Positions 1 to 49,189 of a DNA stretch of 64,000 nucleotides are shown here, one piece after another. Where the stretch lies: positions 94,054,001 to 94,118,000 of the forward strand of contig OZ024745.1 of the NCBI GenBank assembly GCA_964016885.1. The letters run 5' to 3'. Positions within the stretch are counted from its first letter, which is position 1. The number at the start of each line of letters is the position of its first letter. The notes under the pieces are model-generated. The model did no database searches and was not told the origin of the DNA. It worked only from the letters and a program-made list of their open reading frames with translations. The translations under genes and the position numbers were made by a program. The DNA comes from Eledone cirrhosa. Lineage: Eukaryota.

Positions 1-430
1 TAGAGAATTCTGGCCGGTTTTGGCCGGTTTGAACACTAAAGGGTTTAATTATGTTTATTAATGACAAAATAGATGTTTACAGGTTCCCGGGATAATTTAG
101 ATTACCACATGTTAAAGTATCTAAATATGGTTCCTTTTCTATTATATATTCAATGTTGTTTAAAATTACTAACAAGGTATATTTGAGTACAAAACTAAAA
201 ATAATCAACAATTGGAAAACTGAAAACCCCCAAAGTGGATCTGCCTTTCTAAATAGCACATTGTTGAAGTGACCATGACAATAGCATTAACCCTTTATTT
301 AACAAACTGACCAAAACCAGCTCCAATTCTATGAAATAAAAACACCCATTTTAAAGGTTTTCAATTTAAATTAAAATCTTCCAACATAATTTTATATAAG
401 AACCTTGCATATTAAGTTACTATCTTAGTA

Positions 431-3400
431 TGGGCCTTGCAACACAGATAGTTCACTTGGACCCAGGGGGTCGACTGGTGGTGCTGGACCTTGGCAGTGG
501 TGAAGGTAGAGCCTTTAGGCTGATAGCCGCATATGCCCCTTTTCGGACAGAGCGGCCCGACTTTTTCCAGCGTCTGGAGTCTTTTCTAGGGACGTCCCGT
601 TCCCTGCTTTTAGTGGGGGATTGGAATGGTATCCTGGATGCACGTTGGGACTATGCAGGGGCATGTCCCGATAGAGAGGGGTGCAACAGCCTCAAGGGGT
701 TACTCGGCCGATTTGACCTGGCCGATAGATTTCGACTAGATTTTCCGACGGTGCCAACCTGGTCTTGGTCAAATCGCAGCGGATCATCTAGATCGTACCT
801 AGATAGATTTTTAGTTAGAAATAAGGACAGGGACTTTTTAAGTTGTCCAGAAATGCTCATGGTTGGCTATTCAGACCACAAGTTGGTGACCTGCATGGTC
901 AACCTTGATAGAACGCATAGACAGGGCCCCGGTTACTGGAAGCTCAACTTGTCCTTGCCGGCAAGTAGAGCCTACAGGAATCGGATTAGTACGTTAGTTA
1001 AGGAACGGTTGACTGGAGCGATCGTCAACAGCAGGTGGTGGGTATCTCTAAAGAGAGAGATTAGAGTAGTCTCGATTGAATTTAGTAAGGTTCTAGCTGC
1101 GGATAGGAAGGAAAGGGAGCTAATAGATAGAGTAGAAGAGGCAATTAGAAGCGGCGACGTGGCCAGAGTGCTAGCGTCGAGAACGGCTTTGAGCCAGTTT
1201 TTCGACGCGAAGCACGAAGGCTGCGTTGTCCGAAGTAAAATACGTGCTCTAGGGAATGAGGGGGCCAAAGCTGTTAGCTGGGCCCGCGTGACAGAGGCCA
1301 ACAGTGGAACTAAATCCACCATCCGGTCTTTGCGAGACCTGGATGGACGGGCGATTCTTGAGCCTAAGCAGATGTGTGAGGCCTTTCAAAGGCACTTTGC
1401 CCGACTGTTCGGGAGGGGCGGGGAGCCGGTTGGGAACGTGGACTTCGGTCCATACCTCGACGGCCTGCTGCGCCTCTCGGACAGGGAGGCGAAGTCCTGC
1501 GAGGAACCGATTTCGGCCGCTGAGATAGAGGACGTGCTGAGCCAATGCGGCAAACGCAAATCCCCGGGTCTCGATGGTCTTCCTTACGAATTATATCTAG
1601 CTATGCCGGACTTGTTCCCCGATCTCCTCGAGGCGGTCTACTGCAACTGGCAACAGAACGGGAGAATTCCCTGTACTGTGACCAAGAGCGTAGTCACGCT
1701 AGTGAGGAAGGACGAGAACAAGGGGGACGAAATAAGTAACTTCAGGCCCTTATACAGAGTTACAGATTTTGGCCAAGGTGCTAGCAAAGAGGTTGGCGCT
1801 TGTCGTGGGCAACCTGGCGGGAGATGCGCAGACATGCGCTATCCCGTCCAGGTCCATCCATGACAACCTCCACCTCATGCGATACATCATAGAGAGGGTT
1901 GGGAACGAACCCGGCTTTGGTGGGGCTCTGATCAACTTGGATCAATCTAAGGCGTTCGATAGGGTCGACCATGGTTACCTGGATGCGGTGCTAGCGGCGG
2001 CAGGCTTCGGACCCGTTTTCAGGGGCTGGATCACTGCTATGCACAGCAGCCGCATCTGCTCTAGGGTCAAGGTGAACGGCTACCTCTCGGAGCCGTTCAA
2101 AATCGCGCGGTCCATCCGACAAGGGTGCCCTCTCTCCTCCCTTCTGTATGTGTTGACTCTCGAGCCACTACTGCGGAAGTTGGAGTTGTTGCAGGGCATC
2201 CCTTTGGAACCGGGATTGCGGAAAGCGGTGTCAGCCTACGCCGATGATGTGACAGTAATGGTGTCGACGGCCTCCGAAATCGAGGCGGTCGGCACCTTAC
2301 TGGAGGAGTACGAAAAGTTCACAGGGGCTAAGCTGAACCGGGACAAGTCGATCGGTTTGCAACTCGGCACGTGGAGGGGCAGACCGATGCCCTCTGATGG
2401 CGTCGTCGGACGCTGGACGGAGGGCCCGGTGAAGTTGCTCGGGGTCTGGTTCGGACCGGACCTCCAGGTGGAGAAAAACTGGGCGGAGGTTACGAACAGG
2501 GTGTTTGCACTGACCCAGAAGTGGGCCAGTTGCAAACTATCCCTGAAAGGTCGGGCGGAGGTGGCGAACACTTATATAGCGTCCGTCATCTACTACCGCC
2601 TGACCGTAGTGCCCTGCCCAAGGGAAACCCTCACCAAGATGGAGCGCGCGCTCTTCCAATTCCTTTGGAAGAGGCGGGCTCCTATGGTGAGGAGATCCAT
2701 CTGCTGTCAACACCCTTCGAAAGGAGGGCTGGGGATGCCGTGGCTAATGATGCGTAAACACGCATTAAGGCTACGGCACCTCTACGTATTCCTCACCGGA
2801 CAACCGGTGTGGGCCTCGTTTGTGAGACGAACCTTTCCCAGACTCGTCTCACTCACCGAGCTGCAATCCTGGGTCAAGCAAAGACCGAGAAAACTGGGCG
2901 CCTGGCACACTGAGTGTGCCCAGGCGCTCACCGCCCTCTGGCAGGCGGATCCGGTTATCAGTGGAGACTCCACCGCAACATTCTATAGAGGGCTGGTACG
3001 CAGCAGGTGCGACGACGCCCTCGGAGAAGCCCTAGACATGGAGGAGGACGAACTGGCCAGCCTGTTCGGTAGGACATTCAGCCCGGGACCTATGGACAAC
3101 TTCCAGAAGTCCCTGGCCTGGCAGTGTTACCGAGGGGCTTTACCCGTTCGAGAAAGGCTCTACAGACACGGGCGCCCGGGTAGGGACCCCGCCAAAAAGA
3201 TCTGTCCCAGATGCGTGTGCGACGAGGAAACCGTTACACACGCATTGGTACACTGCTCGGGCGTAGCCGATCTGTGGGGCTATGTCGAACAACTGCTGTC
3301 AAGGGTGGGACCGATCCGGTTGACCACCGAGTCTATTGTAATGATCAAGCCGCCTCCCCCCTTCAAAGATGAAGCAGAGGCGGTGTTTCTGTGCGTAATA

Positions 3401-3619
3401 GCCATGGCGAAAGAGGTTGTATGGTGGACGCGTCTGAAAGGACTGAGGTCAGGCACCTTTCTCTCTGGCCAACAACTGGTCCGTTTCTTCCGATATCATT
3501 TCGGAAGAAGGATCAGGATGGAGAGAGAGGTGCTGCACCCCAGTCGTTTTTATGAAAGGTGGGTGAAAGTGGCGAGAATGGCCCGTGTGAATGGGCCTTC
3601 TCTTTACATAAGCCTGTAG
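431..3619 (+). pseudogene. Tx1 ORF2 (APE endonuclease, RT, zf-RVT), truncated and frameshifted
   Basis: GDWN, YLDR and SDHK APE motifs; KSPGLDG, DQSKAFDRV, RQGCPLS and YADD RT motifs; CPRC..ETVTHALVHC finger. A short deletion at ~1750 (NFRP[ITLLN]TEL) shifts the frame between the 477-aa and 616-aa ORFs. Confidence 0.92.
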
Positions 3620-6822: not shown

Positions 6823-7104
6823 AATGTGTTTTTTTAGGATGGTAGGATATAATTTGAGAGTTGGTTACTATCTCTAGCTGGTCAAACAACCATGTAGAGG
6901 TTCCATCATTGTGTAGTGGTATTATCTTACAATGAACTCATGAACATAAAGAATGCAACAAGAAACCACTGTATTAGTCATTGAACTAGCACATTACAAA
7001 AAACAAACATTTAGCTGTACACTAGACTACAAGAAACTGTTTATGTAATCATTTGTCCAACATTTACTTAGTGGTGTCTTATAAATTTATTTTTGTTGTT
7101 TCAG

Positions 7105-7258
7105 GTTTATAGATTTTGAGAACTGCATTGTAAAGGGATTGAAGAAGAAATCTTATGAGGTCCTTTGTGTCATAACTGGTGTTATCCACCCTGTAGCAGA
7201 TCTGAAGATAATCAAGCAGAGCACACTAACGGAGGATGGTAAAATCAAAACCGCTGTG
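7105..7258 (+). CDS. GSDME: Gasdermin E-like gene, internal exon A (pore-forming domain)
   Basis: ttttgttgtttcAG acceptor, GTaagt donor; 154 nt (1 + 51 codons) reading FIDFENCIVKGLKKKSYEVLCVITGVIHPVADLKIIKQSTLTEDGKIKTAV. EVLCVIT resembles the EVLCVLT strand of vertebrate GSDME as I recall it. The symbol means GSDME-like; orthology is untested. Confidence 0.8.
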
Positions 7259-8267
7259 GTAAGTTTAGTTTTTAACAAACTGACAAATTTAGATGTATAT
7301 ATCGGGCAGCGAATTGGCAGTCATCAAGATATTGGATAGAAAGCTTTACGGTATTCGTCCCACCTCATTGTGCGCTCTTAGTTCAAATCTTGCCGTGCTC
7401 AATTTTGCCTTCCATCCTTCCGAGGTTAAAAAAAAAGTACCAGTCCAGTACTGGGGTCATTTCTTCCTCTATAGAAAAAATTGACTGTGTTTAAACTTGG
7501 AGAAGGTTGGGCTCCATCAGGTTTAAAAGTGCCCTAGACACACCATATGATGGTGCCTCTATGACTCCACAAGGAATTATGGGATCTTTATCCTTTTTTT
7601 TATAGACCCATATACAATGTTTATGTATAATAAACATACATATGAAAGCAAGTCAACAATTAGAATGGATGAATGGAGGACAGTCAAATACAGTAAATAA
7701 ATTTGTCAGTTATATATATAGATGTTTGATTCTTGCAAGAGTAGACAAAAGGGAAGTGTATGTATTGATATATATATATATACATGCTTGATGCTAGCAA
7801 GAAGAGGACCCTTGAAATCACTGTTAAGTCTTTTGAAGGAGATCTGAGTTACCTTAATTAATTAGTTGTTTGGTTTATGTAAATATTTGAATTTAATTTG
7901 TGAATGGATTGAACAGTTGCTATAAATCTGCTCAATGGTGATAACAAGGGCATCCAGCTGTAGAAAGCTTGCCAAACAAAGAGTTGGGAAGACTCTTCAG
8001 TTGTGTCAAGATCATGACATCACTTGTTCTAGTGCACTCAGTAGAGCATGAGACTGTGTGTAAGTGAGATATAGACCCACCCCCTGCCTGACTGGGAGGT
8101 CAGTAGCCCCTCTTTAGTACTGACTTGGTCTATGTATACCTGTCAAACCCCTGCCAGCAGGGAAAGGAGACATTAAACAATGATGATGTACCATCAGGGA
8201 ATTTTATCATCTTTTATTTTAGAACATTTTGTAGATTAAACTAATAAATAAATTTTTTATTCATTAG

Positions 8268-8510
8268 TCTTCTTCTTCTTAACCCACCTATTCCCGAGAG
8301 GGTCATGGGGGCAGAGACCTCAAACACTCCTTCCAGTGGGTCCTGTCAGAAGCAGGTGTCTCAAACTGATCTGGCTGGATCCACAAGCGAGACCAGCCCA
8401 GCTCATGGATGTTATCCAACCATCTTGCTCAGGGTCTACCTCTGGGTCTCCTGCTGATTGGTTTTTGCCCATAAAATCTGTCCAGTGATTCTTTCCTGAG
8501 ACATTCTAAC
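8268..8510 (-). mobile_element. 3' end of a second RTE family with (AAG)n tail
   Basis: Minus strand reads RRPRGRP*ARWLDNIHELGWSRL...LRSLPP, then a short UTR ending in aagaagaag. Confidence 0.65.
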
Positions 8511-8892
8511 CACATGAAAAAATGTTTTCTTGAGAGATAGAAACTTGATCTTGAATGCCTCCAATATTGATTGAGTTTCCGTCTCCACCATTTCTCAATT
8601 TGATAAGTTACAAGAGAAGATAGTAACTGACCTGTCACCCTCTCTAAGGGTTGCGCTGATAGCATATTTAGATACATCTTCTATTTCTAATGCTTTATTG
8701 TTATCGATATCAGCACAAACATACACAGCAATGTCATGATTTATTGATTTAAGAGGGAATAATTCTTTTTGAAAAATTTGTGTCCTGTGATAGTAGTAAG
8801 TGAAAAGACCTATCATATGTTTTAGAGATTTACTATTTGATGGAGGATTAACTAGCTCACATGAGATTCTACACAAGTTGGATCATGTAGAA

Positions 8893-9440
8893 ACATCATC
8901 ATCATCGTTTTACGTCCATTCTTCCACGCTAGCATGGGTTAGATGGGTTGTCCTGTTGTGGGCAATTCCAGGTCAGGTGACCATGTTTTGCTCATACAGA
9001 ACTGATTTTGACTTGATTTCTACAGCTGGTTGTCCTTCCTAACACCAACCTGATTTACAGTGAGTACTGGGTGCTTTTTTGCTGTGGCGTCCACACGACC
9101 ATTTGATAGTGTGAACTGGGTGTTTTTTTTGTCGTGACACCTCCACAACCGCTTTACAGTGGGAGAGGGGGGGGGGGGCGATACTGTCTATATGCTCCAG
9201 CTTTGGCTTGTACCTGTTGGAAGTCGGGTCTTCTGTATTACTGCGTAAGGCCAGAGGTCGCGGTCCTGTGTCATTGCCTTTGAGAGGTGCAATTGGGCAA
9301 GATTGGCTTTTATCACCTCATCCCAGATCTTCTTGGGTCTCCCCACTCCAAGGCTTCCATCAACTTTGAGCGCTCAGCACCTTTTTATGCAGCTGTCAGC
9401 CTTCATACGCATCACATGTCCATACGAATGTCCAAACAAT
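8893..9440 (-). mobile_element. RTE 3'-end fragment
   Basis: catcatcatc tail and close similarity to 18295-18805. Confidence 0.85.
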
Positions 9441-10063
9441 TGGTAAAAAATTGTCCAACCAGAGTCTAGATAAATTTGAAACTGAATAAACTGTTTTTTC
9501 TTGATTAAATGTAAACCCTATTTCATGAGCTACTTCTATTAGTCTACCATAACAGCATTTGTGTTCATCTTGAGCATTTTTAGCAATGGCAATGTAACCC
9601 AAATAAACAAAAGTACTGCCCATTAAGTATTCATTGATGATTTTGTAAATCACCCACTGCAGTTTGCCAGTGCCTGTATTATAGGATAGGTTAAATTACT
9701 AATCCAATCCAAGGCCTTCTCACTCCTCTTGGTTGAACCCCCTCCTTGGTTGACCTCTACCACATTCTGTTTGGTTTTGGTCATGTCAGGGATGTAGCCA
9801 TACTCACCACGCTTGACCAATTGGGGGCTGGTGAGGCTATTTAACTGATAGTTGGGGTGGATGGCCATTGAGTCTGAGGAGTTCAGCTGCCCCTTTTTTA
9901 CAGCTCTTTTGTTTTTTGCACTCCCAGGGTTCAACTTACCCTCCTCACCAAATGATATAAATTCTTTAATCATTACAAATGTTCTTATTTCATTTTTCTA
10001 AATAATTTTGTTTTTTCCAAAAGGGTGACAAATGACTTTATTAAATTTTTAATTTCTTTATAG

Positions 10064-10268
10064 AAGAAGGAGATAGCAGATGTTGATGTCGAAGAAAAAG
10101 AAACCAAAAAGAACTCTGAAACTCTAGATATTGTTGGTAAAACTAATTTGGCCTACAATATAGTGGAGTTGAAAATTCACCCTGATGGGACTATTGGTGT
10201 TTGTATGACTGAGAACGACAAAGGTGGCTTTGATGTCCTTGACTCGTGCATTAGAGGGTCTGAGAAAA
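10064..10268 (+). CDS. GSDME: Gasdermin E-like gene, exon B (end of pore-forming domain and linker)
   Basis: ttctttatAG / GTaatt; phase 0 to 1. KKEIADVDVEEKETKKNSETLDIVGKTNLAYNIVELKIHPDGTIGVCMTENDKGGFDVLDSCIRGSEK matches the GSDME/PJVK pattern IAYxVxELxVxxDGxxxxCxxxxxxGGF. Confidence 0.85.
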
Positions 10269-11436: not shown

Positions 11437-13373
11437 CTGTTGAGCGATGGCTTATCAACTATTGACCATGTACTGTTGAGCGATGGCTTATCAACTATTG
11501 ACCATGTACTGTTGAGTGATGGCTTATCAACTATTGACCATGTACTGTTGAGCGATGGCTTATCAACTATTGACCATGTACTGTTGAGCGATGGCTTATC
11601 AACTATTGACCATGTACTGTTGAGCGATGGCTTATCAACTATTGACCATGTACTGTTGAGCGATGGCTTATCAACTATTGACCATGTACTGTTGAGCGAT
11701 GGCTTATCAACTATTGACCATGTACTGTTGAGTGATGGCTTATCAACTATTGACCATGTACTGTTGAGCGATGGCTTATCAACTATTGGCCATGTACTGT
11801 TGAGTGATGGCTTATCAACTATTGACCATGTACTGTTGAGCGATGGCTTATCAACTATTGGCCATGTACTGTTGAGCGATGGCTTATCAACTATTGGCCA
11901 TGTACTGTTGAGCGATGGCTTATCAACTATTGACCATGTACTGTTGAGCGATGGCTTATCAACTATTGACCATGTACTGTTGAGCGATGGCTTATCAACT
12001 ATTGACCATGTACTGTTGAGCGATGGCTTATCAACTATTGACCATGTCCTGTTGAGCGATGGCTTATCAACTATTGACCATGTACTGTTGAGCGATGGCT
12101 TATCAACTATTGACCATGTACTGTTGAGCGATGGCTTATCAACTATTGACCATGTACTGTTGAGCGATGGCTTATCAACTATTGACCATGTACTGTTGAG
12201 CGATGGCTTATCAACTATTGACCATGTACTGTTGAGCGATGGCTTATCAACTATTGACCATGTACTGTTGAGCGATGGCTTATCAACTATTGACCATGTA
12301 CTGTTGAGCGATGGCTTATCAACTATTGACCATGTACTGTTGAGCGATGGCTTATCAACTATTGATCATGTACTGTTGAGCGATGGCTTATCAACTATTG
12401 ACCATGTACTGTTGAGCGATGGCTTATCAACTATTGACCATGTACTGTTGAGCGATGGCTTATCAACTATTGACCATGTACTGTTGGGCGATGGCTTATC
12501 AACTATTGACCATGTACTGTTGAGTGATGGCTTATCAACTATTGACCATGTACTGTTGAGCGATGGCTTATCAACTATTGGCCATGTACTGTTGAGCGAT
12601 GGCTTATCAACTATTGACCATGTACTGTTGAGCGATGGCTTATCAACTATTGACCATGTACTGTTGAGCGATGGCTTATCAACTATTGGCCATGTACTGT
12701 TGAGCGATGGCTTATCAACTATTGACCATGTACTGTTGAGCGATGGCTTATCAACTATTGACCATGTACTGTTGAGCGATGGCTTATCAGCTATTGACCA
12801 TGTACTGTTGAGCGATGGCTATCAACTATTGACCATGTACTGTTGAGCGATGGCTTATCAACTATTGGCCATGTACTGTTGAGCGATGGCTTATCAACTA
12901 TTGGCCATGTACTGTTGAGCGATGGCTTATCAACTATTGGCCATGTACTGTTGAGCGATGGCTTATCAACTATTGGCCATGTACTGTTGAGCGATGGCTT
13001 ATCAACTATTGGCCATGTACTGTTGAGCGATGGCTTATCAACTATTGACCATGTACTGTTGAGCGATGGCTTATCAACTATTGACCATGTACTGTTGAGT
13101 GATGGCTTATCAACTATTGACCATGTACTATTGAGCGATGGCTTATCAACTATTGACCATGTACTGTTGAGCGATGGCTTATCAACTATTGACCATGTAC
13201 TGTTGAGCGATGGCTTATCAACTATTGACCATGTACTGTTGAGCGATGGCTTATCAACTATTGACCATGTACTGTTGAGCGATGGCTTATCAACTATTGA
13301 CCATGTACTGTTGAGCGATGGCTTATCAACTATTGACCATGTACTATTGAGCGATGGCTTATCAACTATTGAC
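11437..13373. repeat. 36-bp tandem array, ~54 copies
   Basis: Unit ctgttgagcgatggcttatcaactattgaccatgta, nearly invariant, no spacers. Confidence 0.97.
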
Positions 13374-15643: not shown

Positions 15644-15756
15644 CTCTTTTCTACCCTCCCAAAGAGGTTGCTGTGGGAAAAAACATGACAGAGCTAACAG
15701 ATGCTTTGGTTCACTGCATCAGGTATTCGGCTCTGTTTGAGTGGTTCGTGCATTGG
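15644..15756 (+). CDS. GSDME: Gasdermin E-like gene, exon C (C-terminal domain)
   Basis: ggatttcAG / GTaagt; 113 nt, phase 1 to 0, continues exon B: TLFYPPKEVAVGKNMTELTDALVHCIRYSALFEWFVHW. Confidence 0.75.
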
Positions 15757-18294: not shown

Positions 18295-21200
18295 CATCAT
18301 CACCGTTTTACGTCCGTTCTTCCACGCTAGCATGGGTTAGACGGGTTGTCCTGTTGTGGGCAGTGTCTGGTCGGCTGACCATGCCTTGCTCATACAGGAA
18401 CTGATCTGGCTTGATTTCTACAGCTGGATGCCCTTCCTAACACCAACCTCATTTACAGTGAGTGCTGGGTGCTTTTTCGTGGCGCCTACACGTCCACTTT
18501 ACAGTGTGGGCTGGGTGCTTTTTTGCCGTGGCACCTCCACGACCACCTTGCGGTGGGGGGGGGGCATATTGTTTATATGCTTCAGCATGTACCCATGGGA
18601 GGTCGGGTACCCTGTATTACTGCGTGACGCCAGAAGTCACGGTCGTGTGTCATTGACTTTGAGAGGTGTAGTTGGGTAAGGTCGGCTTTTATCACCTCAT
18701 CCCAAGTCATCTTGGGTCTCCCCACTCCGCGGTTTCCATCAACTTCTAGTGCTCTGCACCTTTTTATGCAGCTGTCATCCTTCATACGCATCACATGTCC
18801 ATACCAGCGTAACCGCCTCTCCTGCACGCAGCATTTGATTCCTCTTATGCTCAGTCTCTCTCTCAATTCATTTATGCTTTGTCGTTCACGTATATTACTG
18901 TTACACATCCATCGGAGCATGCAGGCTTCGTTTCTCTCTAATCTACGTAGGTCTTCCACCTTCAGCGCCCAGGTCTCACTACCATGCAACATCGCTGTTC
19001 GGATACACGCATCATACAGTCTGCCTTTCATTCTGAGGGAGAAGCCTTTTGCAGCTAGCAGTGGTAGTAGTTCCCTAAACTTCTTCCATCCCGTTCTTAC
19101 CCTAGTTATTGTACTTTCTGAGCACCCACCTCCGTTGCTAATTCGGTCACCTAGGTAGCAGAAGCTGTCTACTGTTTCTACAGGGCCCTCCCAGAGATTG
19201 GTGGTACTTGTTTCCTGTGGCTGTTTGCTTGCTGTTTCAGCACAGCTGCTGCATGTGAATCCTACATTCTTAATTAAGCTTCCTGAGATCCCGCTACATC
19301 TCTTGTGTACCCATTGTTTGCATTTGGGGCAAAGAATGGAGTTCCTACCTACACCTTTCCTACATACTGAGCAAGGCCATTTCCCTGAGGGGATCTGGGT
19401 TCTGTTTTCTCGTCTACTTATAAGGACCTTAGTCTTTGTCATGTTGACTTTGAGGCCCTTTCTCTCTAGTCCCTGCTTCCAGGTTTGGAATTTATTCTCT
19501 AGTTCTACCATAGATTCAGCTATGAGTGCGAGGTCATCAGCATACAGGAGTTCCCATGGGCATCCGGTCTTAAACTCCTCCGTTATTGCCTGCAGGACTA
19601 TGATGAACAGGAGAGGGCTAAGAACAGAGCCCTGGTGGACCCCAACCTGTACGCTAAATTCCTCGCTATACTCATTGCCAATCCTAACTTTGCTGACTGC
19701 TCCCCTATACATGGCTTGTACCGCTTTCACAAGCCATTCATCTACTCCTAGTTTTCTAAGAGCCCACCAGATTACTGCACGTGGAACTCTGTCAAAGGCT
19801 TTCTCAAGGTCGACAAATGCCAAGTAGAGTGGCTTACTTTTAGCTAGGTACTTTTCCTGTAATTGCCTCACAAGGAAGAGCGCATCAGTGGTGCCTTTCC
19901 CTGGAACAAACCCAAATTGCATCTCGTCTATATTCACCCGGTCCCTAATCAGCTGTGCTATAACTCTTTCTGTTACTTTCATGACCTGGTCCATCAACTT
20001 TATACCTCTATAGTTTCCTCTATCTAGTGCATCGCCTTTACCTTTGTAGCAGTTGACAATGATGCTACTGCACCAATCTTTTGGTATGGCCCCCTCTAGT
20101 ATTACCTGGTTAACGATACGTGTGGTTATAGTGTGACCTACAGACCCAGATGCCTTCAGCATCTCGGCAGCTATACCCGATGGACCGGTTGCCTTCCCTA
20201 TCTTCATATCTCTGATTGCCTTACTTACTACGCTGCCGCTGACTTGTACTGCTGGTCCCTCTATAGGGTCTACGTGGGGTAGGGTCTCTTCTTCCCATGC
20301 ATTCTCCTCATTTAGTAATCTATCATAATGACTCTTCCATGCATCTTTCTTCTCAGCACTTGTGAGGGCAAGCTCACCTTTATCATTCCGGATACACTTC
20401 TCTCCAATGACATCACAACTATCTCTGACACACTGCCTCGCAATCTTGAATACCTCCTGTTTCTGGTCCTCACGTTGTAAAACATGCTTGAATTTTCTAT
20501 CCTCTGCTTCCCTCCTAGCTAAGTATACTTGTCGCCTAGCTTCCCTCTTGGTCTCTATGTAATGTACCCTGCTCCCCCCGTTCTTCCATTCTTTCCATGC
20601 CTGTCTCTTGGCCTTGACTGCTTCATCTACCTTATTGTTCCACCACCAAGTCACTCTCCTCCTGCTTGAGGTCTTACTCCAGCCACAAACCTCATCCGTC
20701 GCCTCTAGTAAGTTATTTTTTAGGAACTCCCAGTTCTCTTCTACGTTAAATGTCTCTATCTGTTCTTCTTTACTGTCGTAGGCGTTGAGTAAAATATCTT
20801 TAAATCTGTTACTGGTTGAGGGGACTTTCAGCTTCCAGATCTTTCTTCTCCAGGTTGGCCTCTGTTTCAGGGCTCGTCTAGTTCTGACCGTGAGGTCGCT
20901 GACAACTAAGCTATGTTGGGATGTACATTCCTCACTAGGGAAGGCTTTTGTGTTTACGACCGTCCATCTGTCACGTCCTCTGATGAGGATAAAATCTAAC
21001 TGACTAGAGTGCTCCCCTGATCTATAGGTGATCAGGTGGTTGTCGGGTTTTTTAAAGTTTGTGTTACATATCGACATGTCATTGGCGTCGCAGAATTCTA
21101 GAAGTCTGAATCCTTCCTCATTCCTTGTGCCAACTCCATGGCCTCCATGTACTCTATTGAAGCCGTCGCAGTGTTTACCTACGTGTCCGTTAAAATCTCC

Positions 21201-21606
21201 TGCAATGATTAGGAAGTCCTTGTCGTCTGTTAGAGCAGTAGTGTGTATTAGGGACTCGTAAAACCTATCCTTAAGTTCGTCTGGCAGCCCCGATTGGGGT
21301 GCGTAAGCTGATATTATTGTGGTAATTGTCTTATTCAGGACTAGTCTGAGTTTAATGATTCTTGCATTTACCCTGTACACTGAGATTACTTTATCTACCC
21401 ACTTGTCAGCTAATAGTATACCTACACCACCCATCCCATCGTCATTTCCCATCCAGAAAAATTTGTAGCACTGGCTTTTTCCTACAAGGACTCTAGCAGA
21501 CCCTCCTCTCCATCTAGTCTCTTGCACACAGCATACATCAACTTCCTTTCGCTCTAGCATTTCTACGATTTCTCCTGCTCTTCCTTTCATTGAGCCTACA
21601 TTGAGC
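18295..21606 (-). mobile_element. RTE-clade LINE, nearly complete ORF, 5' UTR lost
   Basis: (GAT)n-type tail at 18295 and internally repetitive 3' UTR; 5' end truncated at LNVGSM. It interrupts the second unit of a ~49-bp local tandem duplication, with only cttt repeated at the junctions. Confidence 0.93.
18582..21590 (-). CDS. RTE polyprotein: APE endonuclease, RT with embedded PHD finger
   Basis: 1002 aa with no stops; CVQETRW, AGDFNGHVG, QFGFVPG, DLEKAFDRVP, QGSVLSP, YADD, a C4HC3 finger, FCYLG and RLRWYGHV. Confidence 0.92.
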   Translation of the reverse strand: MKGRAGEIVEMLERKEVDVCCVQETRWRGGSARVLVGKSQCYKFFWMGNDDGMGGVGILLADKWVDKVISVYRVNARIIKLRLVLNKTITTIISAYAPQSGLPDELKDRFYESLIHTTALTDDKDFLIIAGDFNGHVGKHCDGFNRVHGGHGVGTRNEEGFRLLEFCDANDMSICNTNFKKPDNHLITYRSGEHSSQLDFILIRGRDRWTVVNTKAFPSEECTSQHSLVVSDLTVRTRRALKQRPTWRRKIWKLKVPSTSNRFKDILLNAYDSKEEQIETFNVEENWEFLKNNLLEATDEVCGWSKTSSRRRVTWWWNNKVDEAVKAKRQAWKEWKNGGSRVHYIETKREARRQVYLARREAEDRKFKHVLQREDQKQEVFKIARQCVRDSCDVIGEKCIRNDKGELALTSAEKKDAWKSHYDRLLNEENAWEEETLPHVDPIEGPAVQVSGSVVSKAIRDMKIGKATGPSGIAAEMLKASGSVGHTITTRIVNQVILEGAIPKDWCSSIIVNCYKGKGDALDRGNYRGIKLMDQVMKVTERVIAQLIRDRVNIDEMQFGFVPGKGTTDALFLVRQLQEKYLAKSKPLYLAFVDLEKAFDRVPRAVIWWALRKLGVDEWLVKAVQAMYRGAVSKVRIGNEYSEEFSVQVGVHQGSVLSPLLFIIVLQAITEEFKTGCPWELLYADDLALIAESMVELENKFQTWKQGLERKGLKVNMTKTKVLISRRENRTQIPSGKWPCSVCRKGVGRNSILCPKCKQWVHKRCSGISGSLIKNVGFTCSSCAETASKQPQETSTTNLWEGPVETVDSFCYLGDRISNGGGCSESTITRVRTGWKKFRELLPLLAAKGFSLRMKGRLYDACIRTAMLHGSETWALKVEDLRRLERNEACMLRWMCNSNIRERQSINELRERLSIRGIKCCVQERRLRWYGHVMRMKDDSCIKRCRALEVDGNRGVGRPKMTWDEVIKADLTQLHLSKSMTHDRDFWRHAVIQGTRPPMGTC

Positions 21607-21706
21607 CTTTATATATGTGTTTACAATGTAATCATTGGTATCAGATAATCAGTAAGATATGTCATTGCTTTGATTTGTTTTTCATATTAAAACATTCTTA
21701 TTTCAG

Positions 21707-21832
21707 CTTCATGTCATCCATTCTCATGACGATGAAAAGGTGCCATGGGATGATAAATTTTGGACGTTCATTGGCGATGATGGCTTTCAAGCAGCCTCAA
21801 GGTTTTTCAAATTGATTAATGTAGACTTTAAA
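21707..21832 (+). CDS. GSDME: Gasdermin E-like gene, exon D
   Basis: cttatttcAG / GTaagt; 126 nt, phase 0 to 0: LHVIHSHDDEKVPWDDKFWTFIGDDGFQAASRFFKLINVDFK. Confidence 0.75.
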
Positions 21833-24012: not shown

Positions 24013-24168
24013 TATGGTGAGCAAATTTCTGTTGAGGGTTTTGATAGAAACATGCTTGGATGTGCCCTCTATTATCTTGAGATGATGTCATTTCTATCTA
24101 ATGACGAAATCAAAGCAATCATAGATTGTTCTAACACTCGCTATGTTGTTTCATCTTTCCTGAAAGTG
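24013..24168 (+). CDS. GSDME: Gasdermin E-like gene, exon E
   Basis: tttttgaacAG / GTaagt; 156 nt, phase 0 to 0: YGEQISVEGFDRNMLGCALYYLEMMSFLSNDEIKAIIDCSNTRYVVSSFLKV. Confidence 0.75.
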
Positions 24169-40729: not shown

Positions 40730-43700
40730 CCTACAGGATGGTATACAGAGAAGGCCCATTTACACAGCCATTCTCGCCACTATCACCCACCTTTCATAAA
40801 ACTGCCTGTGGCCAAGCACCTCTCTCTCCATTCTTATCCTTCTTCCGAAGTGATATCGGAAGAAGTAGACCAGACTATGGCCAGAGAGGAAGTTGCCTGA
40901 CCTCAGACCTTTCAATCGTGTCCACCAAACAACCTCTTTCAGCATGGCTATTACGCACAGAAAGACCGCCTTTGCTTCCTTTGTGAAGAGGGGAGGCGGT
41001 TTGATTGTCATCACGGACTCGGCGGTCAATTGGATCGGCGCCACCCGCGACAGCAGTCGTTCGGCGTAGCCCCACAGATCAGCCACGCCCGGACATTGCA
41101 CCAATGCGTGCGCAACGGTTTCTTCGTGACGCACGCATCTAGGGAAAATCTTTTTTGAGGGATCCCTGCCTGGGCGCCCGTGTCTGTAGAGCCTCTCTCG
41201 AACGGGTAGAGCCCCCCGGTAGCACTGCCAGGCTAGTGACTTCTGGAAGTTGTCCATTGGTCCCGGGCTGAAAGTCCTACCGAACAGGCTGGCCAGTTCG
41301 TCCTCTTCCATGTTCAGCGACTCTCCAAGGGTGTCATCGCCCCTGCTAGCCACCAGCCCTCTATAGAATGATGAGGTGGATTCTCCACCGACGGCTTGGC
41401 TCGCTTGCCAGAGAGCCCTGAGCGCCTGAGCACACTCAGTGTGCCAGTCTCCCAGTTTTCCGGATCTTTGCTTGACCCAGGACTGCAGCTCGGTGAGCGA
41501 GACGAGTCTCGGAAAGGCTCGTTTCACGAACGGAGCCCACACCGGTTGACCAGTGAGGAATACCTGTAGGTACCGTAGTCTTAATGCGTGCTTACGCATC
41601 ATCAACCACGGCATCCCCAGCCCTCCTTTCGAAGGTTGTTGGCAGCAGATGGATCTTCTCACCATAGGAGGGCGCTTCTTCCAAAGAAATTGGAAGAGCA
41701 TGCGTTACATGGTGGTGAGTGTTTCCTTAGGGCAAGGCACGACAGTCAGGCGGTAGTAAGTGACGGACGCTATGTAAATGTTCGCCACCTCCGCCCGGCC
41801 TTTTAGGGACAGCTTACACTTGGCCCATTTCTGGGTTAGTGCAAACACCTTGTTCGTAACCTCGTTCCAGTTCTTTTCCACCTGGAGGTCCGGTCCAAAC
41901 CAGACCCCAAACAACTTTACCGGGCCCTCCGTCCAGTGTCCGACAACACCGTCGGGAGGCATCGGTCTGCCTCTCCACGTTCCGAGTTGCAGCCCGATGG
42001 ATTTTTCCCGGTTCAGTTTCGCTCCTGACAACCTTTCGTAATCCTCCAGTAAGATACCGATCGCCTCGATCTCCGAGTCGGTCGATACCATTACTGTTAC
42101 GTCATCAGCGTAGGCCGACACCGCTTTGCTCAATCCTGGTTCCAGGGGGATACCCTGCAACAACTCCAACTTCCTCAGTAAAGGCTCGAGAGTCAATACG
42201 TACAGAAGGGAGGAGAGAGGGCACCCCTGTCGAATGGATCGTGTGATTTCGAACGGCTTCGAAAGGTAGCCGTTCACCTTGATCCTAGAACAGATGTGGT
42301 TGCTATGTAAGGCAGTGATCCAGCCTCTGAAAACAGGATCGAACCCAGCCGCCGCTAGCACCGCATCCAGGTAACCATGGTCGACCCTATCGAAGGCCTT
42401 AGACTGATCAAGTTGATCAGGGCCCCACCGAAGCCGGGTTTGTTGCCAACCCTCTCTATGATGTATCGCATGAGGTGGAGGTTATCGTGAATGGACCTGG
42501 ATGGGATAGCACATGTCTGCGCATCTCCCACCAGGCCACCCACGACAAGCGCCAACCTCTTTGCTAACACCTTGGCCAAAATCTTTAACTCTGTGTTTAG
42601 CAGGGTTATGGGCCGAAAATTATTTATACTATCTCCCTTGTTCTCGTCCTTCCTCACCAGCGTGACTACGCCCTTGGCTACAGAACAAGGAATTCTCCCG
42701 TTCTGCTGCCAATTGCAGTAGACCGCTTCGAGGAGTTCGGAGAAGAAGACCGGCATTGCTAAATAAAGTTCGTAAGGTATACCATCGAGACCTGGAGATT
42801 TGCGTCTGCTGCATTGGCTCAGCGCATCTCCGATCTCATCAGCCGAGATTGGTCCCTCGCAGGACTCTGCCTCTTCGCTCGAGAGACACGGCAGGCCGTC
42901 GAGGTATGGACCGAAATCCACGCCCCCGCCCGGACCCTCCCCTCCCCCGAACAATCGGGCAAAGTGCCTTTGAAAGGCCTCGCACATCTGCCTAGGCTCC
43001 CGGATCACCCGCCCATCTTCGTCTTGCAACGACCGGATGGTGGATCGATTTCCACTCTTAGCTTCTGTCACGCGGTGCCAGCCAACGGCTTTGGCCCCCT
43101 CATTACCTAGAGCACGTATTTTACTTCGAATGACGCAACCTTCGTGCTTTGCATCGAAAAACTGGTTCAAGGCCGTCCTCGATGCCAGCACTCTGGCCAC
43201 ATCTTCGCTCTTGATTGCCTCTTCTAATTTACCTGTTAATTCTTTCTCGTTTCTATTCCTATCGGCAGCTAACATCTTGCTATAACTTATTGATTCTGTT
43301 CTAATCTCTCTTTTGAGAGATGCCCACCATCGGTTGTTGACGATTGCAACGGTCAACCTCTCCTTAACTAATCTGCTAATCCGGTTTCTGTAAGTCTCTT
43401 TTGCCGGTAAAGACAAATTAAGTTTCCAGTAACCGGGACCCTGTTTATGTGTTTTCTCGAGATTGACTACGCAGGTCACTAATTTGTGATCCGTGTAGCC
43501 AACCGTGCGCATTTCTGGACAGCTTAATATGTCCCTATCCTTACTTCTAACTAAGAATCTATCTAAGTACGATCTAGATTGACCACTGTGGTTTCTCCAA
43601 GTCCAGGTAGGCACAGTTGGAAAATCTAGTCGATATCTATCGACCAAGTTAAAACGGTCGAGTAACCCCTTGAGGCTGTTACACCTCCCTCTATTAGGAC

Positions 43701-44166
43701 ATGCTCCTGCATAGTCCCAATGTGCATCTAGGATGTCATTCCAATCCCCCGCTAGAAGCAGGGAACGCGACGTTCCCAGAAAAGTCTCCAAACGCTGGAA
43801 GAAGTCGGGCCGTTCAGCTCCGAAAGGGGAGTAGACGGCGACCAGTCTCAAGGCCGCACCTTCACTACTGCCAACGTCTAGCACCAACAAACGACCCTCC
43901 GGGTCCGAGTGCACAACCTGTACGGCAAGACCCAGGTGTTTTTGCAGCAGTACAACAACCCCACCCCCACCTCCAGGTTGACAGAGAGATGCATGCACCT
44001 CAAAGTCATCGAAGGTAGGGGCCAGCTGCCGCACGACGCTGATTCGAGTCTCACAGATAACCATTACATTTATAACACATGACCTGAGGTCATTTAGAAG
44101 CTTTGCTTGCTTCCAAGTTGAGCCCAGGCCACGTGCATTCAAACATCCTACTCTTAACACATCCAT
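40730..44166 (-). pseudogene. Tx1 ORF2 (APE, RT, zf-RVT) with three lesions
   Basis: Starts MDVLRVGCLNARGL. Frameshift at ~42410 (LINL/DQSKAF), in-frame TAA at 41705-41707 where the other copy has Glu, and a frameshift near 40760. YADD is intact. Confidence 0.92.
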
Positions 44167-45656
44167 GTGGGCGGCAGAGCCAAAGGAGAGTGTAGAGACC
44201 TACCTTTCCGCTTCCTGGGGTTCGGGTCGCACGACTTCCATGGGGTCGGGGGTGTTGGGTGAAGGGGTGTCTTGTGGTGGTGTGGGGTCGTCAGTGTGTG
44301 GTGGGGTTGGGGTGTTTGGAGTGTGTTGGGGAGGGGAAGGGGAGGGGGAAAGCTTTTTAGTAGGACGCGGTTTATGGGTTTGGCAGAGGGTGGTCCTACG
44401 TCCTCCTTAAAATCCTTTTTTAGTTTTTGGTAGAGGTTCATTGGGATCTTTATTAATTTTAAATGTGGGTAGTTTTCTGAAGAAACAAAGTTTACACCTT
44501 CGGTTTGTACCGAAGGATTATTGTATATGAGTTCATTTAATTTATTATTGTTTCTGTTGATGTAAGTATAGTGTAATGTCTTTTTTTCGGATGGTGTGAG
44601 TGTTTCGAAGAGGGGAGGGGCAGGTTTTGTTTTGTTTGTTGCTGGAGGGGTGTTTTCTGTTTTGTTGGATTGTGTTGAGATTTGGGTGGGGGTTGTTTGG
44701 CCTTGTGTGTTTTGCACATGTTTTCTTTTTTTCCTTTTAATCTGTCTGAAGGACTCCGTTTCTTCCTCTGAATTCGTTGGGTTATCTTCAGTGTTGGAGG
44801 GAAGAGGTATGTTTGCGGGTAATGTTTCCGTGTTGGTTTTCTTTGTGGGGGAGATGGATGTCACTATGTTAGACTGTGTTGTGTGTTGTGTCTGCGGTGG
44901 TTGTGTTGTTTTATTGAGTGAGGGGTTGGGTGGGCCTGTATTTTGTTTTGGGGTAATGTGTTGTGACTGTTTGTGTTGTGGTGGTGGTGTAGTTTTACTG
45001 AGGGACGGGTTGGGTGGGACTGAGTTTTGTTGTTTGTTTATCTGTTGTGGTGGTGGAGCTGGTGTTGGTAGCAGGGTTTTCTTTTTGTTGAGTTTGGGAC
45101 AAGCGGCCTTCAGGTGCCCTCTGCCTGCACAGATATGACAGGACGTCCTTCTCCCCTCCACGCTAATGTTTATATACCTGTGGCCCTCTAATAGGATTCT
45201 GTCGGGTATTTGGGCGATGCGTTCAGGCTTCATTTGCACTACCAGCTCTATACCTGTTCCACTGAACGCATTGCCTGTGGTTTTCCCAATGGAAATCACG
45301 TTGTCATTCACTGGATCGATGAAGCCAGCTATGAGCCAGCAGTAGTCCACATCTGGCATCATTGCATCCAGCCATATGCGTTGAGTTCTTTTACCCATAT
45401 AAGATGGATAAAAGGTAACATTTTTCGAACGAATCGGTGACAATGCACATTTTTTTGCCGCCGATTCGTTCTTCATAATAATTGCTAGGCTTCCATACAG
45501 TCTGTCTTTTCTTATGAAAGTGGTTTCATTAAGTACTTCTGTGAGTACTGTTTTGATATCTGCCTGAGTTGGCTGTTCAGGTTTTTTTGAAGTGTTGTTG
45601 ATGGTGCGGAACACGACCGTTCGACTTTCAATGTCTTTGGTGAGTTCTTGAGGCAT
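44154..45656 (-). CDS. Tx1 ORF1 (gag-like, CCHC zinc knuckle, Pro/Thr/Gln-rich tail)
   Basis: 500 aa with CHICAGRGHLKAAC knuckle; overlaps the ORF2 start by 13 nt. The upstream ORF 45689-45916 is probably its N-terminus, split off by a frameshift. Confidence 0.8.
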   Translation of the reverse strand: MPQELTKDIESRTVVFRTINNTSKKPEQPTQADIKTVLTEVLNETTFIRKDRLYGSLAIIMKNESAAKKCALSPIRSKNVTFYPSYMGKRTQRIWLDAMMPDVDYCWLIAGFIDPVNDNVISIGKTTGNAFSGTGIELVVQMKPERIAQIPDRILLEGHRYINISVEGRRTSCHICAGRGHLKAACPKLNKKKTLLPTPAPPPQQINKQQNSVPPNPSLSKTTPPPQHKQSQHITPKQNTGPPNPSLNKTTQPPQTQHTTQSNIVTSISPTKKTNTETLPANIPLPSNTEDNPTNSEEETESFRQIKRKKRKHVQNTQGQTTPTQISTQSNKTENTPPATNKTKPAPPLFETLTPSEKKTLHYTYINRNNNKLNELIYNNPSVQTEGVNFVSSENYPHLKLIKIPMNLYQKLKKDFKEDVGPPSAKPINRVLLKSFPPPLPLPNTLQTPQPHHTLTTPHHHKTPLHPTPPTPWKSCDPNPRKRKGRSLHSPLALPPTWMC

Positions 45657-46341
45657 TTTTACCGATAAAATACCATTCTCTCCTTCACTTATGTATTGTT
45701 TGGCGTCTGTGCGACATCTGAAATATTTTCAGGTATATATGTCAAAGATTTCTTTGTTGTTTGTGCAAATGAAATCTTGTTGACTCTGTCGTCTGCTTTG
45801 CTTTCTGTTATGGTGTTATTTTCAAATGTTATTTTTGTGTTTGTTGTGTCTTTGTTTGTGGTATTAGTATTGTCATGCAATTTTTCAAATTTTTTTTTTT
45901 CGTTGTTGGAATCCATGTCAAGATTTGTGTTTTCGTCATTTTTCTCCGCAGATTCGTCTGTTTTTATTTTATTTTTTCCTTCCTTCTCTATGACGTTAGT
46001 TGGGAAGGAAGGGGGGGGGGGACTAAAGCGTGCGAGCTTACAACTCTTACCCCTGTCCCCCCACCACTATTTTCGTTCGCTTCGTTTAACATTTCTGACA
46101 GACGATTGAAATTTTTTTGCCACAAAATTTTTTAAAACAGGTTTTTCACCTCTAGGAGGGGTAAAGATGAGCTGACCCACCGCCTGACAGTTCAGACGGG
46201 GGGTCAAGCTACACAATAGTATCAAAATTAAATTTGAACTCACAAAATTTCCGCAATAAATTTGAACAAAACTTCTGCGCGAAGTGAATTACATCCACAC
46301 TGTAGAACAGACGACAGCTAGATTCGATAGATAGATATATA

Positions 46342-48218: not shown

Positions 48219-49189
48219 AATGAGCTAAGAAAGTCTCTAAGCTTGAAAGTCATCAGATAATGTGTACAAAAAGGTTGTTTTTGCTGTTATTTAGGTCTAT
48301 GTCAACCCTAACTAAGCAGACATGTGTTCAACTGTATTCCTTCCATGCCCATCTCATCATTTTAGGAGTGTGTAAGATGGCATTATCCAAAATGTTATTT
48401 AGCTTTCCTAAGACAGTAGGGTGTAATTTGAGTGAGATTTAGCTGCTATTTTCAGCAAGTTGAGCATGTAGAGTTTTCTCAACTATGTAGAGGTTAGTGT
48501 TCACTTTGAGAACCTCTGCCTTAGAAGGTGGTGAGGGAGATACTCTGTGGGGCTAACACTTGTGGGTAGCAAACTCTGCTCTAATAGTAGTGAGTAGGAA
48601 TGTGGTCTGAGGGCTAAGAACGCTGGATCCATCACTTGGTTGGTAGTGTATTACTCAGTTAAATAGCTAATATGTGACTAATAATTGTTTCTACTTTAGG
48701 CACAAGGCCAGCAACAACCCAGTGCCTCACTGGTACTTGATTTTATCGACCCCATAAGGATGAAAGGCAAAGTCAACCTCGGCGGGATTTGAACTCAGAT
48801 CGTAAAGGGACGTAACTATGCTAGAAAGCATGGCGTCCGACCCTCTACCGATACTACCAATCCAAATACACTAGCATTTTAAAGAAGTCTTTCACATTGG
48901 TAAGAAAGGTTTTGGAAAGTTCAAACAGTAAGTTTTATGACCATTTACTTTGAGATAATGTAAGATGTTTCAGCTATCTTTATCATTTCATTTTTTTAAT
49001 AAATGGTTTCCCATTCTTGATTATAGCTTTTTGCTGTATATGTGTGTTTTTAACCTACACACATGTATGTGTGTGTGTGGGGGAATCTATCTATACAGCA
49101 CATGTATGTGTGTGTGTAAACCTACATATATACAGTATATGTGTGTGTGATCCTACATATATATATACAGCACATATATTAGTGTATGT

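Follow-up and report, generated by a model that had tools for sequence, protein, structure and literature searches.

In the octopod Eledone cirrhosa, the pentapeptide D-V-L-D-S (GATGTCCTTGACTCG, 10232-10246) is encoded in frame straight after KGGF (10220-10231), at the end of the pore-forming domain of a gasdermin, and we consider it probable that this DVLD-S is an activation site of the caspase-3/7 type. The motif lies in a spliced and apparently intact gene, is conserved among cephalopods and stands between two recognizable domain folds. The reading of it as the likely activation site is based on this conservation, on its position in a predicted structure, and on analogy with gasdermins that have been tested.

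A gasdermin gene in the window

The window is the whole stretch of 64,000 nucleotides (nt) that was analyzed. Six coding exons, A to F, were located in it by tblastn with orthologues (Table 1). Every acceptor is AG and each of the five internal donors GT; joined together, the exons encode 323 amino acids (aa) without interruption up to the stop codon, with 83.6% identity to aa 141 to 464 of Octopus sinensis LOC115232596. The N-terminal exons (aa 1 to 140) were not found by profile search within the 64-kb window. In run X1, of unrecorded run type, one contig of 2,172 nt joined 7258 to 10064 (GT..AG) and reached 10268 with 0 differences; the 945 nt of this contig past exon B would, by our own arithmetic, accommodate exons C to F together with a 3' end close to either AATAAA (28062 or 28081). 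The three remaining runs of that study were unspliced here. A sequencing artefact was rejected, since the contig was free of mismatches over exon B and no variant inside exon B was found in 4 runs (one study). The gasdermin gene in the window is a real octopod gene and appears intact. The open frame of exon A (7085-7339) extends 80 bp beyond the donor, and the spliced contig places the true end at 7258.

Table 1. Coding exons and motif of the gasdermin gene (positions in the window)
Feature	Position	Strand	Basis
Coding exon A, about aa 141-191	7105..7258	+	tblastn, splice sites, joint in run X1
Coding exon B, aa 192-260: last pore-domain strands, GGF, DVLD-S, linker start	10064..10268	+	Pfam, tblastn, splice sites, run X1
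KGGF, end of gasdermin pore-forming domain	10220..10231	+	Pfam match end; alignment with human GSDME GGF 242-244; structure superposition
DVLD, P4-P1 of predicted caspase-3/7 site	10232..10243	+	Orthologue residues 248-251; sequence and cephalopod conservation; cleavage predicted
Ser, predicted P1'	10244..10246	+	Ala in Argonauta, Ser in cuttlefish/squid clusters, Leu in genus Octopus
Coding exon C	15644..15756	+	tblastn, splice sites, predicted structure
Coding exon D, C-terminal domain	21707..21832	+	tblastn, splice sites
Coding exon E, C-terminal domain	24013..24168	+	tblastn, splice sites
Last coding exon F and stop codon	27551..27769	+	tblastn, splice sites; AATAAA at 28062 and 28081

Exon B has an AG acceptor and a GTAATT donor and matched Pfam Gasdermin (PF04598) over model positions 188 to 238 of 240 (E = 1.5e-4, below the cut-off when the exon was searched alone). 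The original prediction had placed DVLD-S directly after KGGF in this exon and had taken GGF as the end of the pore domain; frame, splice sites, Pfam match, and mismatch-free spliced contig bore out the former, and the end of the Pfam match and the alignment with GGF 242-244 of human GSDME the latter. A search with exon B gave 3 matches from 22 candidates, all of them octopod and 76 to 85% identical (O. sinensis LOC115232596, a Logan protein, and Argonauta hians), and a full-length search (5 matches of 8,000 scored) added two proteins with 53 to 56% identity, one of which clusters with Sepia pharaonis. The window thus belongs to an octopod distinct from those matched.

Mobile elements and tandem repeats are present around the gene. 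The intron between exons C and D harbors, about 100 bp before exon D, a non-LTR retrotransposon on the minus strand (18585-21608), presumably RTE-like, with an uninterrupted stop-to-stop frame of 1,008 aa and endonuclease, reverse transcriptase, and PHD-like matches. Two related non-LTR retrotransposon copies (endonuclease, reverse transcriptase, and zf-RVT), in frameshifted pieces, lie at 400-3616 (+) and 40763-45728 (−), the latter with an upstream frame of 524 aa that had no Pfam match. The intron after exon B contains a very homogeneous 36-bp tandem array (11437-13373; 54 copies, 98%) in which several frames are open; further arrays are found at 49140-52123 (41 bp x 72) and 55755-56610 (19 bp x 45).

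In the orthologues, PF04598 matched above the cut-off (E = 8e-24 to 1e-20), which identifies the N-terminal pore domain. No Pfam match was obtained for the C-terminal region, which is uninformative because a C-terminal gasdermin match was absent from every full-length invertebrate protein scanned (13 of 13); fold search settled the matter in favor of a repressor domain (see below). When 37 N-terminal domains were placed in a tree (midpoint root, one search), the cephalopod proteins formed a long-branched clade (100/100, length 1.84), placed weakly among molluscs (93/86) and outside both the vertebrate GSDME clade (100/100) and the PJVK-like row. Assignment to vertebrate GSDME proper was therefore rejected, as was assignment to pejvakin (PJVK), in which the C terminus is truncated, whereas here a full repressor-fold domain of 213 aa is present. 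A DxxD in the interdomain linker, as in caspase-3-activated gasdermins of the GSDME type, is kept in the orthologues. The protein is an invertebrate gasdermin (GSDMin) of the molluscan part of the tree and is likely to be GSDME-like in its working. Its closest known relatives are the orthologous two-domain gasdermins of other molluscs (GSDMin/GSDME-like, e.g., abalone and oyster GSDME), for which activation by caspase-3 has been reported.

The DxxD motif among cephalopods and in the predicted structure

KGGF occurs in 15 of 20 cephalopod sequences examined, and in every one of the 15 a DxxD comes directly after it (8 further members of the cephalopod clusters, of 42 to 66 aa, were excluded from the 20). 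The expectation that the motif is kept in other cephalopods was thus confirmed in octopuses, argonaut, and cuttlefish, with the 15 sequences representing five 90% clusters and hence not 15 independent cases. The variants were DVVD-L in three Octopus species, DVVD-S, DVLD-A in Argonauta, and DIPD-S in the cuttlefish/squid clusters, so that P3 and P2 vary (VV, VL, or IP); the P2 Pro of DIPD is also found in human DMPD and coral DEPD. This was the sole DxxD common to all five clusters. Across the window's protein and 5 cephalopod sequences both Asp residues were invariant, which by itself is modest evidence because 139 of 323 columns, and 10 of 26 Asp columns, were invariant anyway. The P1 Asp (D251), on the other hand, was the sole invariant column among 249 to 258, and D248 and D251 are the sole Asp residues within the coil 248-265 of the window's protein. 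At an Asp frequency of 6.5 to 7.8%, we calculated that a DxxD would occur by chance exactly here with a probability of about 0.5%, and anywhere in the 18-residue coil with one of roughly 10%.

Residue 252, the P1' position, is Leu in O. sinensis, O. vulgaris, and O. bimaculoides and Ser or Ala in the remaining cephalopods. Leu at P1' is disfavored by caspases and may slow cleavage in the genus Octopus. A second DxxD (DGND or DGDD) was observed at residues 109 to 112, inside the pore domain, in the three octopod clusters; it falls in a low-confidence segment (92-116), is not seen in that form in decapods, and is encoded by an exon outside the window. It could be an inactivating caspase site.

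The structure was predicted with AlphaFold2 for the Argonauta orthologue, rather than for the window's protein, from 53 sequences (mean pLDDT, 78.9; pTM, 0.49, at which interdomain packing is unreliable). Residues 1 to 249 of the model superposed on residues 1 to 245 of the human GSDME pore protomer, the closest solved pore-domain structure (Z = 19.9, rmsd 4.0, 225 aligned), and residues 259 to 460 on the GSDMD repressor domain (Z = 15.7, rmsd 2.8, 177 aligned); Foldseek agreed. The last pore-domain strand was predicted at 234-237 and a two-residue strand at GF (246-247), followed by coil (248-265) and by helices from 266. The P1 Asp is at the start of 251-258, the sole interdomain stretch with pLDDT below 50. 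Since model residues 1 to 249 match the pore protomer, a cut after D251 would drop the repressor and keep all residues seen in the solved pore. Access for a caspase is uncertain, because P4 to P2 (248-250) sit on the margin of the ordered domain, beside a flexible stretch of only about 8 residues.

Distance between GGF and the putative cut site across the family

According to the original prediction, human GSDME has roughly 20 residues between GGF and its site, and the octopod linker would be unusually short. We counted 22 residues in human GSDME (GGF 242-244, DMPD 267-270), a protein that shares the caspase-3 DxxD logic and belongs to a separate clade. The octopod linker is indeed short relative to human and mammalian GSDME; as a novelty the claim was rejected, on the basis of GGF-to-site counts across 63 family representatives, the tree, and distances measured from a conserved Glu.

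The representatives were drawn from a profile search of 1.84 billion representative sequences, which gave 129 matches, 106 of them of at least 230 aa and 63 with an aligned GGF and 30 more residues. A DxxD within 30 residues of GGF was present in 31 of the 63. It followed GGF directly in four, namely, Octopus, Lingula (DTVD-S), one further protein (DDVD-G), and Saccoglossus (DKPD-E, with a poor P1'), and in 16 of 63, including Morone gasdermin Eb, the Asp was one residue nearer (FxxD, using the F of GGF). The Lingula anatina protein (XP_013387688, pejvakin-like), from a brachiopod, has GGF-DTVD-S in a register identical to that of the octopod and is homologous over 432 columns (hhalign, 99.7%) at about 28% identity. 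Teleost GSDMEb resembles the octopod protein in that its caspase site touches GGF (FEVD; GG-FEVD at 243-246 in Morone GSDMEb), and differs from it in having FxxD instead of DxxD and a longer downstream linker; some species have a lytic form, others a non-lytic one. The DxxD of Haliotis rubra stands 9 residues farther from GGF than that of cephalopods.

The reference point for distances was a Glu of the penultimate strand, conserved in 50 of 53 alignment rows. The P1 Asp was at +25 in cephalopods and Lingula, at +24 for FxxD sites, including those of fish, at +27 to +35 in other molluscs, an annelid, and nemerteans, at +19 and +35 in the coral Montipora, and at +43 to +51 in most vertebrate GSDME (+47 in human, E223 to D270). 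The span from this anchor to the first repressor helix, where the alignment is loose, was 59 to 60 in cephalopods, against a family range of 59 to 105 (median, 74) and about 100 in tetrapod-type GSDME; one other representative had 59, and Owenia, Patella, and Lingula had 62 to 64. The cephalopod linker is thus short yet within the family range, and the long human linker is the opposite extreme and not the norm. Among the gasdermins of invertebrates and fish, a putative site this close to the pore domain is nothing out of the ordinary.

Predicted cleavage and its alternatives

A caspase-3/7-type protease would cut after the second Asp of DVLD, and this would release the pore-forming domain, complete at about 251 residues, from the repressor domain. 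The freed domain is predicted to oligomerize in membranes and to cause pyroptosis-like death, and octopod gasdermin may have an immune role. A precedent is coral GSDME, in which, according to PMC9450806 (citing Jiang 2020), caspase-3 cuts 238DATD241 and 254DEPD257, with a lytic fragment from either site. Like the octopod protein, Orbicella faveolata GSDME has a DxxD at the end of the pore domain; there are two tandem sites in coral and one in the cephalopod linker, and the first coral site probably lies some 6 residues closer to the domain than that of the octopod, as judged from Montipora foliosa, where DxxD is likewise at 238-241 and 254-257. Amphioxus GSDME is cut at VHTD253, with lysis, and by human caspase-3 at DVVD304, the same tetrapeptide as in Octopus (PMC10155998). 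Other texts describe mollusc, coral, and hydra gasdermins as activated by caspase-3 with a preference for small P1' residues (PMC10948149) and invertebrate sites as conserved DxxD motifs (PMC11508797). In its discussion, PMC9130220 states that human GSDME-N of less than 235 residues loses activity, a limit that the octopod N-terminal fragment exceeds.

Among the alternatives, the one that survives best, though we hold it to be unlikely, is that caspases cut DVLD and the freed fragment is non-lytic or weakly permeabilizing, with a non-pyroptotic role. Fish studies speak for it: GSDMEb cut at the adjacent position yielded fragments without lysis in pufferfish (245FEVD248, cut by caspases 1, 3, 6, 7, and 8; PMC11358365) and in turbot (243FEVD246, cut by caspase-8; PMC9130220), whereas tongue sole and zebrafish GSDMEb fragments are described as lytic in a review (PMC8122782). 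A site that touches GGF can thus be reached by caspases, and lysis is not automatic. The little LDH released by lancelet and shark fragments (PMC8742441) and the long cephalopod branch point the same way. Coral fragments that end still nearer the domain are lytic, however, and the cephalopod orthologues keep F2, L18/19, K38/39, and the Glu anchor, with a predicted pore fold that is intact. A related reading, which seems doubtful to us, is a switch with one conserved caspase site in about 9 flexible residues, in which cleavage would need peeling of the GGF strand, or in which no lytic pore would form, with further damping in the genus Octopus by the Leu at P1'. The cephalopod gasdermin would then be the most compact full-length switch sampled here, on a fast-evolving branch and differently gated or non-lytic, to which we give similarly little credence.

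It is decidedly unlikely, in our estimate, that both Asp residues have a structural role, such as capping of the GGF strand or contact with the repressor, with activation relying on another protease or on no cleavage at all and the DxxD being incidental. D248 is next to the invariant block CxxxxDKGGF, many Asp columns are invariant in any case, and the genus Octopus tolerates Leu at P1'; moreover, cleavage-independent activation of GSDME and GSDMD is described in a review (PMC12547243). Against this stands D251 as the only invariant residue of a variable, low-confidence stretch. Gasdermins of brachiopod, annelid, nemertean, and mollusc, in addition, carry a (D/E)xVD-small motif downstream of GGF at a distance that shifts from one to the next, a pattern more in keeping with a protease motif than with a structural contact. 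A true cut at the ELTD of exon C (276-279), which resembles an initiator-caspase motif and is followed by Ala or Ser in octopod sequences, is very improbable, and ELTD was rejected as the main site because it falls inside a predicted helix (274-285) and is replaced by EVQE in the cuttlefish/squid (decapod) clusters.

The orthologues XP_029658425, XP_014790989, and CAE1327994 are already in published surveys, and the O. bimaculoides, O. sinensis, and S. pharaonis proteins are listed in the supplement of PMC9355259. Alignment figures in supplements may already mark the cephalopod DxxD. In the literature searched, subscription papers excepted, no experiment that examined cleavage of, or lysis by, a cephalopod gasdermin turned up. 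The general picture is unchanged, since caspase-3 activation at a linker DxxD has already been reported for coral, mollusc, fish, and mammals. For molluscs, Yuan 2022 (PMC9355259) describes gasdermins as a group without an evident caspase site, and the cephalopod DxxD is a clade-level exception to this published remark. DVLD-S provides a precise and testable candidate for the activation site in cephalopod pyroptosis.
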